From NCBI GenBank assembly GCA_965197555.1, contig OZ240213.1, positions 2,603,671-2,667,670 on the forward strand: 64,000 nt of DNA. Direction: 5' to 3'. Positions 11,048 to 52,914 of this stretch are shown here, one piece after another. The stretch's first letter is position 1, and each line of letters opens with the position of its first letter. Under the pieces are notes generated by a model. The model did not search any database and was not told the DNA's origin. It saw nothing but the letters and a program-made list of their open reading frames with translations. The position numbers were made by a program, and so were the translations under genes. The stretch comes from Dehalococcoidia bacterium (lineage in GTDB: Bacteria > Chloroflexota > Dehalococcoidia > Lucifugimonadales > UBA3495).

Positions 11048-12397
11048 ATGCCCGAATGTTTTCAGTTGACCACCGCAGAGGCTGCCCGCCTAATACGAAC
11101 GAAGGAGCTGTCCCCGGTGGACTTGGCCAGGTCCTTGCTGGAGCGCCTTGATAGCCTGGAGCCTCGGATAAACGCGTGGGTCTATCTGGACCGGGAGGCC
11201 GTGATTTCCGACGCTCGCCAAAAAGAGGCCGAAGTCCAATCCGGAGCAGAGCTGGGTCCGTTGCATGGTGTACCCATCGGGTTGAAGGATATCTATTACA
11301 CCGCTGGCATCCCCACCACCGCATGCTCCAAGGTATACGCCGACTTCGTTCCAAGCTACGACGCTACCACCGTGGCGCTGCTCAAAAGAGCCGGGGCTAT
11401 CATGATGGGGAAAACCGTGACGACGGAGTTCGCTTGCATGGACCCCTCGCCCACCCTTAATCCTTGGAACCCCGCTCATACCCCCGGTGGCTCCAGTAGC
11501 GGATCGGCGGTGGCGGTTGCTACTGAGATGTGCTCCGCAGCCCTGGGGTCCCAGACCGTTGGCTCTGTACTGCGGCCAGCCTCCTATAACGGGGTGGTGG
11601 GTCTAAAACCTACCTTCGGGCGGGTTAGCCGCTACGGGGTGATTCCGGTTTCCTGGTCCTTGGATACCATGGGGTGGATGACCCGAACCGTGGAGGATGC
11701 CGCCCTGTTGCTCCAGGTTATGGCGGGGCCTGACCCCCAGGACCCGGTGGCGGCGCGGCGGCCTGTCCCATCTTATATGGACGGCCTGGTGGACCCCTCC
11801 CCTCCACGTATCGGCCTATTGCGCCGCTTTTTCTTTGAACACGCCGACGAGGAAACCCGCAAGAATGTGGAGGACGTGGCGGAACGATTGAGCCAGGCTG
11901 GCGCGATTGTAGAGGAGATCCCCTTACCGGCCAGCATCGACAGCGCCAACGAGGACCAGCGTATGGTTATGGCAGTAGAGGGCGCCAGCTTTCATCAGCC
12001 GATGTACGAGCGGCAGGCGGAAGACTATCAACCATTGATCCGGGAGATGATCCGTTGGGGTCTGTCCGTCGACGCGGTGACCTATTCCCGGGCTCAAGAG
12101 AACCGCCGCCGGTTCCTCGACGACATGGAGCAGGTTTCACAACAGGTGGATATCCTGTTAACCCCTTCTACCCCCACACCTGCCCTGGCCGACGTGACCA
12201 ACACCGGCAACAGGCTTTTCCAGGGACCGTGGACGTCCTGCGGGCTGCCGGCTATAACCATCCCTTCGGGGCTGGCGGCCTCGGGGTTGCCCTTCGGGAT
12301 TCAATTGGCCTCGGCCCACTTTGAAGAGGCCAAGCTATTGGCGGCGGCCCGCTGGTGCGAGGCTGTCTTGGACCTGCATCTGTCGCCGCCGGTGTGA
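11048..12397 (+). CDS. amidase (amidase-signature family), paralogue of 14949-16313
   Basis: ATG at 11048 with RBS AAAGGAGGA. HGVPIGLKDIYY, GGSSSGSAVAVA, GSVLRPASYNG. Confidence 0.9.
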   Translation: MPECFQLTTAEAARLIRTKELSPVDLARSLLERLDSLEPRINAWVYLDREAVISDARQKEAEVQSGAELGPLHGVPIGLKDIYYTAGIPTTACSKVYADFVPSYDATTVALLKRAGAIMMGKTVTTEFACMDPSPTLNPWNPAHTPGGSSSGSAVAVATEMCSAALGSQTVGSVLRPASYNGVVGLKPTFGRVSRYGVIPVSWSLDTMGWMTRTVEDAALLLQVMAGPDPQDPVAARRPVPSYMDGLVDPSPPRIGLLRRFFFEHADEETRKNVEDVAERLSQAGAIVEEIPLPASIDSANEDQRMVMAVEGASFHQPMYERQAEDYQPLIREMIRWGLSVDAVTYSRAQENRRRFLDDMEQVSQQVDILLTPSTPTPALADVTNTGNRLFQGPWTSCGLPAITIPSGLAASGLPFGIQLASAHFEEAKLLAAARWCEAVLDLHLSPPV

Positions 12398-14948: not shown

Positions 14949-16313
14949 TTAGCTGTAGTCGGGCGGTGAAAGGCTGACCCCTAGGGCTGTCTCGCACCAT
15001 CTAGCTATCGCCAGTAGATTCGCCTCCTCCAATGGAAGAGCTCCCAACTGGATAGCCAAGGGAAGGCCGGCCTCGCTAAGGCCGGACGGCAATACAATGG
15101 TGGGAAGACCACTGGAAGTCCAGGGTTGTTGGAATGCTGGGTCCCCAGTGGTGGTCCGGTCCCGGGGCGGTGGGGCTGGTGTCGCTGGAGTCAGCACCAC
15201 GTCCACTCCCTTGACCATGTCAACCATATCCTGGCGGAATTGGCGGCGCAAACGCTGGGCCTGCAGATAGCGGATACCGGGGATCATCATTCCCATTTCA
15301 ATGGTGGCCCGGAGCCGGGGACCGTAGTCGTCGGCCCGGTCCCGAAAGAACTCCTCGTGGAAGGCAGCGGTCTCGACGTTGCTCACGATGCGCTGGCAAC
15401 TATGGGCGGTAGCAAAGCTCTCCGGAAGGCGGACTTCCTCGACGGTGGCCCCAGCCTGGGCCAAACGCTGAGCAATTGCTTCTGTGTGGCTCTGGACCTC
15501 CGGCGTAGCCTGATCAAAAAAGAACTCTCTAATTAATCCGATGCGCGGTGGCTTGTCCCTGGACTTCATTTCCTCTAGGTAGTCAGGGGGAGGCGGAATG
15601 GCGGAGCCGGGGTCGTTAATATCATGGCCAGCCATTACCTGAAGCATTATGGCGGCGTCCTCGACGCTGCGCACTAGGATGCCGACGGTGTCCAGGGACC
15701 AGCTAACAGGTACTACACCATAGCGGCTGATTCTACCGTAGGTGGGTTTGAGGCCGACGATTCCGTTGTAAGCCGCCGGCCGGCATGTGGAGCCACCGGT
15801 CTGGGAACCCAGGGCGGCGGCGCACATGCGCGTGGATACCGCGACCGATGATCCACTGCTAGACCCACCGGGAGTGTGGGCCAAATCCCACGGGTTGTAA
15901 GTTGGCGAGGGATCAGCGGTGGCGAATTCGGTCGTGACGGCTTTACCCAGAATAATGCCGCCGGCCTCTTTGATCCGGGCCACACAGGTCCCGTCGTAGT
16001 TGGGCACAAAATCGGCGTAGATGCGTGAGCATGCGGTGGTCTTCATGCCGGCGGTGTAGAAAATGTCCTTTAGGCCCACGGGTACACCGTGGATCGGTCC
16101 CCTTACTTCGCCCCGCGCTAACTCTTCCTCGCGCTGTCGGGCTGTGTTGAGCACCTCTTCCCGGTCGATGGTCACCCAGGCTTGCAGGGTGGGGTCCAGT
16201 GAATCGATCCGGTCGAGCAGTGACTGGGCCAGATCAACCGGGGATAGCTGGCCGCGCTTGATCTGATCAGCGGATTCGGAAACGGACAGGTGATACGGTT
16301 CAGACATATTCAC
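14949..16313 (-). CDS. amidase (amidase-signature family), paralogue of 11048-12397
   Basis: 454 aa. HGVPVGLKDIFY, GGSSSGSSVAVS, GSTCRPAAYNG. By eye about two thirds of residues are identical to the 11048-12397 product over the N-terminal 200 aa. Confidence 0.9.
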   Translation of the reverse strand: MNMSEPYHLSVSESADQIKRGQLSPVDLAQSLLDRIDSLDPTLQAWVTIDREEVLNTARQREEELARGEVRGPIHGVPVGLKDIFYTAGMKTTACSRIYADFVPNYDGTCVARIKEAGGIILGKAVTTEFATADPSPTYNPWDLAHTPGGSSSGSSVAVSTRMCAAALGSQTGGSTCRPAAYNGIVGLKPTYGRISRYGVVPVSWSLDTVGILVRSVEDAAIMLQVMAGHDINDPGSAIPPPPDYLEEMKSRDKPPRIGLIREFFFDQATPEVQSHTEAIAQRLAQAGATVEEVRLPESFATAHSCQRIVSNVETAAFHEEFFRDRADDYGPRLRATIEMGMMIPGIRYLQAQRLRRQFRQDMVDMVKGVDVVLTPATPAPPPRDRTTTGDPAFQQPWTSSGLPTIVLPSGLSEAGLPLAIQLGALPLEEANLLAIARWCETALGVSLSPPDYS

Positions 16314-20350: not shown

Positions 20351-21051
20351 GCGCGGAGTTCGTGGCCAACATGGAGGACCTGCTGGACCTCCACGCCGAA
20401 CCCTATGACCCCCGACGGCCGGTGGTCTGCTTTGACGAGACCTCGACCCAGTTGTTGGCCGAGACGCGGCCATCTCTGCCGCCCCGGCCCGGAATTCCGC
20501 TGCGGCAGGACTACGAGTACCGGAGGGAGGGCGTCCGCAACCTGTTCCTGGCCTGTGAGCCGCTGGCGGGCTGGCGTCATGTGGCGGTGACCCAGCGGCG
20601 TACCATGCAAGACTTCGCCCATCAGATGCGCTGGCTGGTGGACGAAGCTTACCCGGAGACCCCGGTGGTGCGTGTGGTCATGGACAACCCCGTATCAAGT
20701 ACGGGGCAGGCTCTGAACACGCATCGTCCGGCGTCCCTGTACGAGACGTTCCCGGCACCAGAGGCCCGGCGGATTGCCAAACGGCTGGAGTTCCACTACA
20801 CCCCCAAGCACGGAAGTTGGTTGAACCCCGTATCAAGTACGGGGCAGGCTATGGCGGAAATCGAGTTCAGCGTGCTATCCCGCTCCTGCTTGAAGCAGCG
20901 ACTCCCCGACGAGGAGGCGCTCCGGCGGGAAGTCCATGCTCTGGTTAAGGAACGCAACGCCGCCCAAGCCACTATCCGCTGGAGGTTCAATACCCAGGAT
21001 GCCCGAACCAAACTTCACTGCCTTTACCCTTTTGATTCCAAGGTTGACTGA
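20347..21051 (+). CDS. IS630 transposase OrfB (DDE catalytic domain) carrying two 8-aa in-frame insertions
   Basis: VVCFDETSTQLL (first D), VVMDN[PVSSTGQA]LNTHRP (second D), HGSWLN[PVSSTGQA]MAEIEFSVLSR (E). The frame is already open from about 20296. Confidence 0.85.
   Translation: MSAEFVANMEDLLDLHAEPYDPRRPVVCFDETSTQLLAETRPSLPPRPGIPLRQDYEYRREGVRNLFLACEPLAGWRHVAVTQRRTMQDFAHQMRWLVDEAYPETPVVRVVMDNPVSSTGQALNTHRPASLYETFPAPEARRIAKRLEFHYTPKHGSWLNPVSSTGQAMAEIEFSVLSRSCLKQRLPDEEALRREVHALVKERNAAQATIRWRFNTQDARTKLHCLYPFDSKVD
20689..20712 (+). repeat. 24-nt hairpin cassette, copy 1 (in frame in transposase)
   Basis: CCCGTATCAAGTACGGGGCAGGCT, directly after AAC. With the preceding C it forms a 7-bp stem CCCCGTA/TACGGGG with loop TCAAG. 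Identical to copy 2. Confidence 0.9.
20827..20850 (+). repeat. 24-nt hairpin cassette, copy 2 (in frame in transposase)
   Basis: CCCGTATCAAGTACGGGGCAGGCT, directly after AAC, 138 nt downstream of copy 1. 24/24 identical. Confidence 0.9.
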
Positions 21052-47495: not shown

Positions 47496-47532
47496 CGTTC
47501 GTGGTGAGCCCTCGGCAGCCTCAGGGCGAACG
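47496..47532. repeat. solo hairpin related to the 51.4-51.8 kb repeat family
   Basis: CGTTCGTGGTGAGCCCTCGGCAGCCTCAGGGCGAACG. It shares GGTGAGCCCT(T)CGGCAG and the CTCAGGGCGAACG / CGTTCG arms with the tandem array units. Confidence 0.45.
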
Positions 47533-51052: not shown

Positions 51053-51081
51053 TTGACACACATACCGTGGGTTAGTACCAT
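51053..51081 (+). promoter_or_regulatory. putative promoter of the S-box leader
   Basis: TTGACA (51053-51058), 17-nt spacer, TACCAT (51076-51081), about 35 nt upstream of riboswitch helix P1. Confidence 0.4.
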
Positions 51082-51115: not shown

Positions 51116-51258
51116 CCCTTTATCCAGAACGGCTGAGGGGACGGCCCGACGAAGCCTGGCAACCGGTCCTGTAACTGCGAGGTGCGTGTTGGAGGATACG
51201 GTGCTAATTCCGGCGCTCTTTCGGTGTACCTTTGACGGAAAGCGCGAGAGATGAGGGG
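51116..51258 (+). promoter_or_regulatory. SAM-I (S-box) riboswitch aptamer
   Basis: Conserved blocks match remembered SAM-I sequences. They are UUAUCCAGAACGGCUGAGGGGACGGCCCGACGAAGCCUGGCAACC, GGUGCUAAUUCC (51200-51211) and GAGAGAUGAGGGG. P1 pairs CCCUUUAUC (51116-51124) with GAUGAGGGG (51250-51258). Confidence 0.85.
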
Positions 51259-51272
51259 CTCAGGATGCAATT

Positions 51273-51302
51273 GAGCTTCTCTGCGGGAGAAGCTCTTTTT
51301 TT
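51273..51302 (+). terminator. intrinsic terminator (expression platform of the S-box leader)
   Basis: 9-bp stem GAGCTTCTC / GAGAAGCTC, loop TGCGG, followed by T7. It is strand-specific because there is no U-tract on the other strand. Confidence 0.8.
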
Positions 51303-51378
51303 GGTCAAAGACTAATACCCTGTTTCAACAGGTGGCGCGAACTGCCAGGTGGTTCCGCTGTCACATAATAGCTACTAA

Positions 51379-51833
51379 GAAACTATCTCGGAACCTGAGC
51401 CCGACGGCCCTTCGACAGGCTCAGAGCGAACGGGGAGATTCGCATTAGGCGGAGAATTACAATATGGTGAGCCCTTCGGCAGGCGCGGGATAGGCTTGTC
51501 GAACCAGGAACCGACGGTCCTTCGACAGGCTCAGAGCAAACGGGGAGATTCGCACTAGGCGGAGAATTACAATATGGTGAGCCCTTCGGCAGGCGCGGGA
51601 CAGGCGTGTCGAAACCTGAGCCCGATGGCCCTTCGACAGGCTCAGAGCAAACGGGGAGATTCGCACTAGGCGGAGAATTACAATATGGTGAGTCCTTCGG
51701 CAGGCGCGGGACAGGCGTGTCGAACCACGAACCGATGGCCCTTCGACAGGCTCAGGGCGAACGAGTCATATTTGCCCTCCGTTCGTGCTGAGCTTGTCGA
51801 AGCACAGGTTGGGTGAGCGCCTCACATCTTGAG
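51379..51833. repeat. MITE-like insertion built of ~110-bp tandem repeats (3 full units plus partial ends)
   Basis: Units start at 51411, 51521, 51632 and 51742 (periods 110/111/110) and are near-identical. Subterminal inverted repeats are CTTCGACAGGCTCAGAGCGAACG (51410-) and CGTTCGTGCTGAGCTTGTCGAAG (-51802), each 31 nt from the flank. The element is flanked by the exact 11-bp direct repeat ATAGCTACTAA (51368-51378 and 51834-51844). Confidence 0.8.
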
Positions 51834-51861
51834 ATAGCTACTAACACCGGTGGAGTAGAAG

Positions 51862-52914
51862 TTGGAGGAGATCAGGCCGATCCAGTGGACTGGCAAGACG
51901 ATTAGGCTGCTGGACCAGACCAAGATTCCCCAGGAGCGGGTTACGTTTGAAGCCCGCAGCTATCTGGAGGCCGTGGACGCCATCCGGGAGATGCGGGTAA
52001 GGGGAGCCCCCGCTATCGGGGTTACCGCCGCTTACGCCGTGGCGATGGCTGCCCAGGACATCCCTGTCATTGATCCTGAAAAATTTATGGACCGTCTCAG
52101 GGATGCAGCCAAACAGATTGCCGCCGCGCGTCCAACCGCAGTGAACCTTCGCTGGGCTGTGGACAGGATGCTCAGGGTGGCCGAGGCCCAGTCCAAGGTT
52201 GAAGAAGTAACAGCCCGTTTGGTTGCTGAGGCGCGTCAGCTCCAGGAAGAGGATGAGGAGATCAACCGGCGCATGGGTGATCACGGTAAGGAACTGATGC
52301 CCGAGGGTGGTGCGGTTCTTACCCACTGCAATACCGGGGCCCTGGCCACCTCCGCGTTTGGAACGGCCTTGGGCGTAATCCGCGCCGGATGGGAATCCGG
52401 GAAGCGGTTCGATGTGTTTAACACCGAGACCCGGCCTTTCTTGCAGGGAGCCCGTTTGACCTCCTGGGAATTCCAGCAACTTGGCATACCCGCGACGTTG
52501 ATCGTGGACTCGGCTGCAGGAATGATGATGGAGCGAGGCAAGATCAGCTGCGTTATCACCGGGGCCGATCGCATAGCCGCCAATGGTGATACGGCCAACA
52601 AAGTGGGAACCTATTCTTTGGCGGTCTTGGCTAAGGAGAACAACCTGCCGTTCTACGTTGCAGCCCCGACCAGCACCGTTGACTTGGGGCTGGTAACAGG
52701 CGACGAAATTCAGATAGAGGAGAGGCCGCAGGAAGAAGTCACTCATTTTCGGGGCCAATGGGTGGCTCCCGAGGGAATATCAGCTTTGAACCCGGCATTC
52801 GATGTGACCCCTAACCGGTTTATCTCAGCGATAATCACTGAGTCCGGGATCGCCAAACCTCCGTATCACGAGAGTTTGAAGCTGGCCGTCGGGGCAGGTG
52901 GAATTGGTTCATAA
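51862..52914 (+). CDS. mtnA: S-methyl-5-thioribose-1-phosphate isomerase
   Basis: 350 aa. IRPIQWTGKTIRLLDQTKIP, MRVRGAPAIG, THCNTGALAT, ITGADRIAANGDTANKVGTY. TTG start with GGTGGAG RBS. Confidence 0.9.
   Translation: MEEIRPIQWTGKTIRLLDQTKIPQERVTFEARSYLEAVDAIREMRVRGAPAIGVTAAYAVAMAAQDIPVIDPEKFMDRLRDAAKQIAAARPTAVNLRWAVDRMLRVAEAQSKVEEVTARLVAEARQLQEEDEEINRRMGDHGKELMPEGGAVLTHCNTGALATSAFGTALGVIRAGWESGKRFDVFNTETRPFLQGARLTSWEFQQLGIPATLIVDSAAGMMMERGKISCVITGADRIAANGDTANKVGTYSLAVLAKENNLPFYVAAPTSTVDLGLVTGDEIQIEERPQEEVTHFRGQWVAPEGISALNPAFDVTPNRFISAIITESGIAKPPYHESLKLAVGAGGIGS

Follow-up and report, generated by a model that had tools for sequence, protein, structure and literature searches.

A tandem palindromic-repeat mosaic between the SAM riboswitch and mtnA of a Dehalococcoidia bacterium

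BIME-2 clusters of Escherichia coli are tandem arrays whose copy number at one locus differs between strains (PMC3333891). REP sequences have stems of 6–13 bp (PMC3733652), and their definition calls for an imperfect palindrome of 20–40 nt carrying a conserved GTAG or CGTC tag at the foot (PMC3333891, PMC3733652). The BrickBuilt MITE of Porphyromonas gingivalis, an intergenic element for which promoter activity has been suggested, places a variable tandem array between a leader segment and a tail segment and has small inverted repeats at its ends (PMC4596501). PATEs, which derive from IS200/IS605 elements, carry hairpins inside their ends rather than at the ends, make no target duplication and insert beside a fixed 4–5-nt site.

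The Correia/NEMIS elements of Neisseria, the ERIC elements of enterobacteria and the pneumococcal RUP are co-transcribed elements of 100–150 nt that form long hairpins in mRNA leaders or spacers, and they can alter transcript stability or provide promoters. The MIRU minisatellites of mycobacteria (VNTR loci) are intergenic tandem units of 40–110 nt within operons, with strain-polymorphic copy number. Here we describe an element with features of several of these systems, situated in a riboswitch leader.

The window analysed, which is the whole 64-kb stretch of DNA, contains a 455-bp element (51379–51833) between the terminator of an S-box leader and the TTG start codon of mtnA. A reading made from the sequence alone had proposed a MITE-like tandem-repeat element at this position. 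The array and its coordinates were verified with Tandem Repeats Finder, which reported one array at 51401–51763 (period 110, 3.3 copies, 91% matches, score 612) and scored every other tandem repeat in the window at 52 or less. The features of the locus, together with the sole other trace of the same repeat family in the window, are:

47496–47532, plus strand: degenerate short hairpin of the arm family, 3′ of an electron-transfer-flavoprotein gene (pattern search with 3 mismatches; covariance-model E-value only 0.68)
51053–51081, plus strand: sigma-70-like promoter of the S-box leader, TTGACA-17-TACCAT (promoter scan, 10 of 12 matches)
51117–51257, plus strand: SAM-I riboswitch aptamer (Rfam RF00162, 65.4 bits against a gathering score of 44.4)
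51273–51302, plus strand: intrinsic terminator, the riboswitch expression platform (10-bp stem, then a run of seven T)
51368–51378: left copy of the 11-bp direct repeat, ATAGCTACTAA
51379–51409, plus strand: left end of the element, about 7 unique nt and then the alpha-linker-like sequence CCTGAGCCCGACGGCC (unit alignment)
51410–51519, plus strand: unit 1, with left arm (51410–51433), AT-rich linker, TACAAT (51458–51463), interrupted right-arm-like segment (51466–51503) and beta linker
51520–51630, plus strand: unit 2, 111 nt, alpha linker at its 3′ end
51631–51740, plus strand: unit 3, 110 nt, beta linker at its 3′ end
51741–51802, plus strand: terminal hairpin, with canonical left arm (51741–51763), 16-nt loop and right arm (51780–51802)
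51803–51833, plus strand: right end of the element, containing the small palindrome GTGAGCGCCTCAC
51834–51844: right copy of the 11-bp direct repeat
51849–52914, plus strand: ribosome-binding site GGTGGAG and mtnA, starting with TTG at 51862 (NCBIfam TIGR00512, 440 bits)

Both the SAM riboswitch and the five-gene methionine-cycle operon named in the sequence-only reading are present: mtnA is the first gene in the order mtnA-mtnP-rhodanese-ahcY-metK, and the succession of an aptamer above its gathering score, a terminator and a 3′ mtnA is also seen in five relatives. The hexamers of the S-box promoter are identical in three relatives (L003, L004 and L041), and the TTG start and the N-terminus of MtnA are conserved in relatives, which are labelled Chloroflexi or Dehalococcoidia. 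In the window, 604 nt separate the end of the aptamer from the mtnA start codon.

Four segments make up each unit of the array: a left arm, CCTTCGACAGGCTCAGAGCRAACGG; an AT-richer linker of 36 nt with GGAG, TACAAT and ATG; an interrupted right-arm-like segment made up of GGTGAGCC, CTTCGGCAGGCGCGGGACAGGCG and TGTCGAA; and a short linker that is alternately of the alpha (CCTGAGCCCGAYGGCC) or the beta (CCASGAACCGAYGGYC) type. The proposed unit starts (51411, 51521, 51632 and 51742) are each marked by TTCGACA, and the repeat finder detects three copies in register, spaced 110 and 111 nt apart. Units within the array are 90–95% identical to one another, and the alternation of alpha and beta linkers produces a 221-nt super-period, with 92% identity at a shift of 221 nt as compared with 75% at 110 nt (over 155 nt). 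Subterminal inverted repeats had been claimed at 31 nt from each end, and this was borne out: 51410–51433 and 51779–51802 form a 24-nt inverted repeat, 88% complementary, each arm 31 nt inside the flanking repeat, while the repeat finder also detects a nearer inverted pair, 51741–51763 with 51780–51802. Alignment shows that the left 31-nt end consists largely of sequence homologous to the alpha inter-unit linker, and the repeat effectively starts near 51386.

An array of strong hairpins, as the sequence-only reading had pictured it, was not found. The 62-nt terminal hairpin is exceptional, folding at −40.3 kcal/mol (z = −7.0 against shuffles), whereas the folding of single internal units does not exceed that of shuffles (z = −0.4 and +0.2) and the entire element reaches a z of only −2.7. 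Only the last pair of arms is canonical; internal arms 1–3 have AAACGG where the canonical arm has GAACGG, and they also break one covarying pair, with C opposite A. This suggests that the internal copies may be decaying away from the family consensus. A covariance-model search of the element against Rfam 15 (E up to 10) gave only hairpin-shaped matches far below gathering scores, mostly to microRNA precursors, and Pfam searches with the ORFs of the repeat gave nothing meaningful. A hammerhead or other ribozyme, a toxI-like antitoxin array and a spacer-less CRISPR were ruled out, with neither an Rfam match nor partner genes.

The mtnA element resembles BIME-2 clusters and atypical BIMEs, which are extragenic, often transcribed in operons, and composed of palindromic modules of alternating orientation with linkers, arranged in tandem and variable between strains; here alpha and beta linkers alternate with the 221-nt super-period, and close relatives carry 3 units and 1 unit. 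It falls outside the definition of REP, since its 24-nt arms form a 62-nt hairpin and neither a GTAG nor a CGTC tag is found in the flanks of hairpins of the family. Further differences from REP/BIME are that its arms pair over 23 bp, that the unit is 110 nt long, that it occupies a 5′ leader and not a 3′ region, that the family is sparse in the sampled part of the genome and that a RAYT transposase has not been seen, there being no RAYT (TnpA-REP) gene in the window. With BrickBuilt it shares a leader segment, a variable tandem array, a tail with small inverted-repeat ends and an intergenic position; BrickBuilt, however, is species-specific, repeats a 23-nt sequence and is present 19 times per genome, whereas the mtnA element has a 110-nt unit and one known copy, and its arms cross phyla. 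The Correia/NEMIS, ERIC and RUP elements differ from what is seen at mtnA in their abundance within one genus and in possessing well-defined terminal inverted repeats with target duplications (TA in Correia), and MIRUs are not palindromic and have no flanking direct repeat. As in PATEs, its hairpins lie inside its ends, but the conserved guide tetranucleotide and the TnpA gene of PATEs were not seen for the element or its family. It is best classed among the interspersed palindromic-repeat mosaics, and it behaves as a minisatellite.

An MtnA search returned one cluster at 90% identity or above, with all other matches at 77% or below. Four of the more distant relatives, represented by long contigs (L003, L004, L048 and L049; 72–75% MtnA identity), have the S-box aptamer without the element, and only 76–92 nt separate the end of the aptamer from the start codon. 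Because these four relatives are without the element, the compact leader is taken to be the ancestral state. A leader of about 90 nt had been predicted for the locus without its insert, and removal of the element with one repeat copy leaves 93 nt from terminator to TTG. We infer a genuine insertion into an ancestrally compact leader, as the sequence-only reading had argued; the comparison is with relatives whose spacer is unalignable, and the left repeat is unchanged in a close relative. Compact leaders were found at 72–75% MtnA identity, and no empty site was found in a close relative: a metagenome scan of the JGI collection, which is incomplete, gave 0 matches to the predicted empty site.

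The exact 11-bp direct repeat that had been noticed at either side of the element occurs exactly twice in the 64 kb (starting at 51368 and 51834), against 0 expected, and when the two 60-nt flank zones were shuffled 2000 times, a shared word of at least 11 nt appeared in 3 cases. Statistically, the flanking duplication is real, and it has the form of a target-site duplication. TCACAT precedes both copies, and the repeat probably extends further, imperfectly; two other readings of the duplication are a 3-bp TAA adjoining imperfect terminal inverted repeats of 11 nt and a stretch of about 22 nt interrupted by an indel. The latter extent, which is long for a transposase duplication, is in keeping with the alternative that the element grew in place, a single hairpin of the family, present in the leader beforehand, having been elaborated by repeated local duplication and template switching, with the flanking repeat as a duplication scar. 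The entire element, both ends included, is made of fragments of one arm family, the unit number has demonstrably changed in situ (see below), and direct tandem arms arise elsewhere in the family. Nevertheless, neither the neighbouring sequence nor the family offers a source for the 36-nt AT-rich linker, and the distant relatives have no hairpin of any kind in the spacer between terminator and mtnA, and we regard growth in place as quite improbable.

The sole close relative in the cluster at 90% identity or above is represented by two long-read assemblies (L041 and L042) and is 98% identical to the window in mtnA DNA and 96% in the leader. It carries the same element at the same site. Its left repeat is identical, ATAGCTACTAA (L041 2728–2738), while the right repeat reads ATAGCTATTGA in L002, L041, L043 and L044, keeping 9 of 11 nt. 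The relative's element has one full unit and the terminal hairpin, and at 234 nt as compared with 455 nt it differs by a 221-nt step, exactly two units. A Logan contig that starts inside the element has the one-unit form downstream of that start, and the remaining short-read contigs end inside the right arm or just before it. Because the same element occupies the same site with a different number of units, it is an old insertion, present in the common ancestor, that behaves as a minisatellite. The occurrence of 3 and 1 units in close relatives points to local recombination or slippage, by analogy with BIME-2 clusters and minisatellites.

The three-unit form is known from one assembly only, and its length might therefore be an assembly artefact. 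We consider this most improbable: the 4.5-Mb metagenomic contig (ENA ERZ25072076) is apparently a long-read one with 17× coverage, judged from its name; the units differ at diagnostic positions and have two alternating linkers, which collapse or over-expansion would not yield; and the element is independently present in JGI, ENA and Logan assemblies. The relative's single unit is 95.5% identical to unit 1 of the window, as compared with 90–95% within the array, and the relative's terminal arm bears the AGCAAACG signature of the window's internal arms. These two observations favour an ancestor that already carried several units, with a 221-nt loss in the relative, probably through recombination between arms. 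The region 51741–51844, comprising the terminal hairpin, the right end and the right repeat, is 89% identical to the relative and is the fastest-changing part compared.

We judge it probable, with some reservation, that the element is a non-coding, non-autonomous palindromic-repeat mosaic that was inserted in an ancestor, has changed its unit number in place and is probably a tolerated passenger. On this account the mosaic would have entered the spacer between terminator and ribosome-binding site in the common ancestor with the closest sampled relative, leaving a flanking direct repeat of at least 11 bp. It is built of a 24-nt arm, CCTTCGACAGGCTCAGRGCRAACGG, alternating with degenerate inverted copies of itself and two linker types, with a canonical pair closing the array as the 62-nt hairpin, and the near-identical arms would allow the 110-nt module to expand and contract by slippage or unequal recombination. 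The element would be transcribed within the leader only once the riboswitch permits read-through, and read-through transcripts would gain 455 nt of G-rich, moderately structured RNA, with the very stable terminal hairpin 59 nt 5′ of the TTG; structured RNA would thereby be added to the 5′ untranslated region and SAM control would not be removed.

A true MITE, mobilised by a transposase acting in trans and having defined terminal inverted repeats, an 11-bp (or 3-bp TAA) duplication and other genomic copies, is an unlikely description of the element. The flanking duplication behind the MITE-like designation is exact, the element is non-coding and shorter than 500 bp, a 12-nt inverted repeat (I8) was found in the window, and BrickBuilt shows that a MITE can contain a minisatellite (PMC4596501). 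There is also near-terminal complementarity, CTATCTCGAAA against TTTTGAGATAG, paired in the fold of the relative's element; the pairing there of CUAUCUCGAAA with UUUUGAGAUAG is short and imperfect in the window. The MITE-like designation is supported in part; what it lacks is clean ends and a second copy in the sequence sampled. The inverted repeats at the very ends have a 7-nt core (CTATCTC/GAGATAG) that can be extended to 9 of 11 or 10 of 12 nt; they are short and imperfect (9/11) and overlap the right direct repeat, while the strong inverted repeats are set 31 nt inward from the ends. A related IS with matching ends was not seen, and hairpins of the same family in other genomes are without flanking duplications.

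Searches with patterns specific to the unit or to the ends recovered no further copy of the composite element in the window, in related loci or in 185,579 GTDB representative genomes, where a unit-specific 20-mer gave one chance match only, within a Bacteroidaceae coding sequence. The proposed census covered about 73 kb of the genome, whose contig measures 4.5 Mb: neither the unit nor either end recurs in the 64-kb window and 9 kb more of the genome. A further 41 kb from other genome regions, sampled via copies of the IS3 transposase, contained no additional element. No second composite copy was present in about 100 kb of related or co-occurring loci. A metagenome scan with the right end gave 0 matches, a weak result in that the collection lacks the JGI contig L002, which matches the pattern; scans of viral sequences with unit-specific patterns gave one chance match and nothing else; and a protein search for other arrays, made with a 69-aa spurious ORF, gave four word-sharing candidates, none significant. 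With a single copy among the sampled sequence, mobility of the whole element is at most putative.

In kinetically controlled S-box switches, the choice between termination and read-through is settled before polymerase reaches downstream sequence, and because that decision precedes the arrival of polymerase at the element, the array should be unable to influence it. On the sense strand there is no intrinsic terminator within the element, and no hairpin in it is followed by a U-tract. The element is G-rich and not C-rich (149 G and 119 C on the sense strand) and should therefore be a poor Rho loading site. Since it has no intrinsic terminator and should load Rho poorly, we infer that it is most likely a neutral, tolerated passenger, with SAM control kept and a small effect on expression.

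Each unit had been credited with a TACAAT box. The three boxes are there, but they have no usable −35 and were not called by the promoter scan, and the absence of a −35 led us to reject them as promoters. The only promoter-like site inside the element, a weak one, is TCGACA-18-CATATT (51743–51772, 9 of 12 matches), which falls within the terminal hairpin and has been preserved in the relative; a second 9/12 site, CTGCCA-16-CATAAT at 51342–51369, is just 5′ of the element, and its −10 ends in the left repeat copy. Each unit also has GGAG, a 9-nt spacer and ATG, and a 43-codon frame persists in the relative with a GTG start. Gene callers called none of the element's frames. The spurious-ORF peptides that had been recognized in the units, PFALSLSKG and LRQAQ(S/G)ER, are indeed present in the translations.

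The main alternative to a neutral effect is that the promoter-like site in the terminal hairpin may give some riboswitch-independent transcription. In the relative, a 1,203-nt IS3-family insertion (L041 1509–2711), with ends TGACC...GGTCA unrelated to those of the element, lies between the terminator and the element, at the equivalent of 51351/51352 in the window. With this 1.2-kb IS between riboswitch and element, expression there could be independent of the S-box promoter, and riboswitch-independent transcription might be useful; the IS genes point in the same direction, however, and read-through from them would explain expression equally well.

More generally, the element could be a functional addition to the leader, providing a bypass promoter, stabilizing or processing hairpins or short upstream ORFs, with unit number tuning expression. 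The TCGACA-18-CATATT site conserved in both lineages, the IS3-family element that splits the relative's riboswitch from an operon that includes metK, the GGAG, spacer and ATG of each unit, the persisting 43-codon frame and the conservation of orthologous family hairpins across seven Sphingobium species (see below) are all in keeping with such a role. Yet the promoter-like site matches at only 9 of 12 positions and is buried in a −40 kcal/mol hairpin, the TACAAT boxes have no −35, the relative's expression can be explained by the co-directional IS genes, the uncalled frames yield the usual spurious peptides of the family, and the internal arms are decaying from its consensus. We are therefore doubtful of a functional addition and retain the tolerated passenger as the preferred reading.

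The arms of the element belong to a family with the core CTTCGACAGGCTCAG, which is also found in plasmids of Alpha-, Beta- and Gammaproteobacteria and in viral contigs. An exact 25-mer of the arm occurs 30 times in IMG/VR, and in a BLAST search of PLSDB with the terminal hairpin 44 plasmids were matched, from Sphingobium (up to 19 places per record), Novosphingobium, Sphingomonas, Sphingopyxis, Comamonas, Polaromonas, Variovorax, Sulfuricella, Moraxella and Methylobacter; none of the matches listed has an annotated feature beneath it. Family members take the form of long hairpins in both arm orders, of single arms and of direct tandem arms with periods of 21–49 nt, and the number of direct arms differs between homologous phage contigs (3 in L053, 2 in L057). 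One arm lies inside a called hsdR gene; a PDB search concerning the status of this arm as an insertion gave no matches. The period of about 110 nt is absent from other family copies, neither flanking duplications nor a shared tetranucleotide were seen at family hairpins in other genomes, and Rfam searches with these hairpins (E up to 1) gave only hairpin-shaped matches far below gathering scores. The searchable literature yielded no description of the core sequence or of the typical peptides.

In an alignment of 87 distinct arms, the two positions on either side of a 15-nt core covary (CC/GG, GG/CC, TG/CA, TC/GA and CG/CG). Because of this covariation, together with invariant C-G and U-A pairs, each arm by itself appears to be a small stem-loop with an invariant 11-nt loop, TCGACAGGCTC. 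Pairing was found in 82% of cells as compared with 71% in shuffles, and the covariation score was 0.294 as compared with 0.107 in shuffles, none of 500 being as high, while slid controls gave 0.04–0.09. The covariation amounts to about four independent double changes, because the commonest type was used to gather the arms, which are also related to one another by copying.

An orthologous family hairpin lies between convergent bluB and hydrolase genes in seven Sphingobium megaplasmids or species. Its flanking sequence is 83–90% identical to the query and the surrounding spacer is unalignable, whereas the cores of the hairpin are invariant except for one variable position each. The arm flanks switch together, such that the long hairpin keeps 2×2 mismatches and each arm stays self-complementary; flip-flop inversion of the whole segment was ruled out as the origin of this switch, the central loop not being inverted. 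This strong conservation argues that family members may not always be junk. We entertain, tentatively and as something short of likely, the idea that the 24-nt arm is an undescribed structured motif of several phyla, with a covarying 4–5-bp stem and the invariant loop TCGACAGGCTC, kept by selection or by an unknown copying machinery, in which case the mtnA array would be a site of its amplification and may act on the leader RNA. The motif is usually followed by CGAACGG and has been seen as complementary pairs, in direct tandem arrays and within genes, in Chloroflexota, in Alpha-, Beta- and Gammaproteobacteria and in their phages. The arm family looks under-described, and a more interesting lead than the mtnA element itself.

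The locus offers a clear natural example of large insertions being tolerated in a riboswitch leader between terminator and start codon, 455 nt in the window and a 1.2-kb IS with 234 nt in the relative, and it bears on how far expression platforms can be separated from the genes that they control. The one-unit and three-unit lineages constitute a natural allelic series. The building block is a hairpin motif, absent from Rfam, that is nearly unchanged between distant phyla and shows compensatory changes. The arm family is also a common source of spurious ORFs, encoding LSLSK, FDRLRANG and LRQAQGER peptides, and its description would help genome annotation; a proper description of the family might reveal a new mechanism of mobilization or one acting at the level of RNA.

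Every arm of the repeat family forms a mini stem-loop, in which two covarying flanking pairs close a loop of 11 nt, TCGACAGGCTC, that does not vary; CGAACGG usually comes after it. This description comes from an alignment of 87 arms taken from IMG/VR, PLSDB, the window and its relatives, in which the covariation score was 0.294 as compared with 0.107 in shuffled alignments; none of 500 shuffles scored as high.

Seven Sphingobium megaplasmids retain a family hairpin at an orthologous site, where bluB and a hydrolase gene converge on it:

L040 1456-1544: bluB/hydrolase hairpin
L062-L067, around 560-650: the same hairpin in the other six megaplasmid records

The cores of this hairpin are invariant except for one variable position per core, the spacer surrounding them is not alignable, and the arm flanks occur in two states that switch jointly. 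In L053 and L057, two homologous IMG/VR contigs, the arm is in direct tandem with a 49-nt period; one contig has three copies and its homologue has two, a further copy-number difference inside the arm family. An arm variant, CCTTCGACAGGCTCAGGATGAGCGG, translated as LRQAQDER, lies within a called hsdR gene (L050 5108-5135) belonging to another genome, 4.4 Mb in size, in the same sample. This variant is possibly a copy inserted in frame within the gene, which would liken it to the Rickettsia palindromic elements; a PDB comparison on this hsdR arm found nothing.

The window itself contains a degenerate family hairpin, CGTTCGTGGTGAGCC...GCCTCAGGGCGAACG, at 47496-47532, downstream of a fused electron-transfer-flavoprotein gene; its fold is weak on both strands (z about -1.4). 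Self-BLAST of the window also revealed an exact 27-nt direct repeat, with copies 138 nt apart (20686-20712 and 20824-20850), and an inverted similarity of ~420 nt, 72% identical, between 11254-11668 and 15687-16101.

The aptamer has GGGCTCAGG at its 3' edge (51256-51264), whose position is taken to be that of a putative antiterminator stretch. It is the perfect complement of CCTGAGCCC, found in the alpha linkers of the repeat element:

51394-51402: alpha-linker site complementary to the aptamer edge
51615-51623: second such alpha-linker site

The terminator stem, TGAGCTTCTC, also resembles the right arm, TGAGCTTGTC. Both the complementarity and this likeness are probably due to chance, because the terminator stem is ancestral.

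Each unit also carries GGAG, a 9-nt spacer and ATG (51451-51466, 51561-51576 and 51672-51687), from which reading frames of 9, 31 and 43 codons extend. The longest is:

51685-51816: 43-codon frame, ending 46 nt upstream of mtnA

This frame is also present in the close relative, with a GTG start and four amino-acid changes, and is probably spurious.

In the same close relative, a 1.2-kb IS3-family element (orfA and orfB; L041 1509-2711), with ends TGACC...GGTCA, is inserted at the position matching 51351/51352 of the window. It separates the S-box terminator from the repeat element, is co-oriented with the operon, and interrupts a weak promoter-like site known from the window, CTGCCA-16-CATAAT. 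Contigs of two other relatives have insertions directly upstream of the S-box promoter: in L004, ~1.2 kb bearing small ORFs (~1520-2720), and in L005, an insertion with a DDE transposase (110-1810). These differ from the insertions in the window and its close relative. The NAPRTase-mtnA intergenic region seems to be an attractor of insertions.
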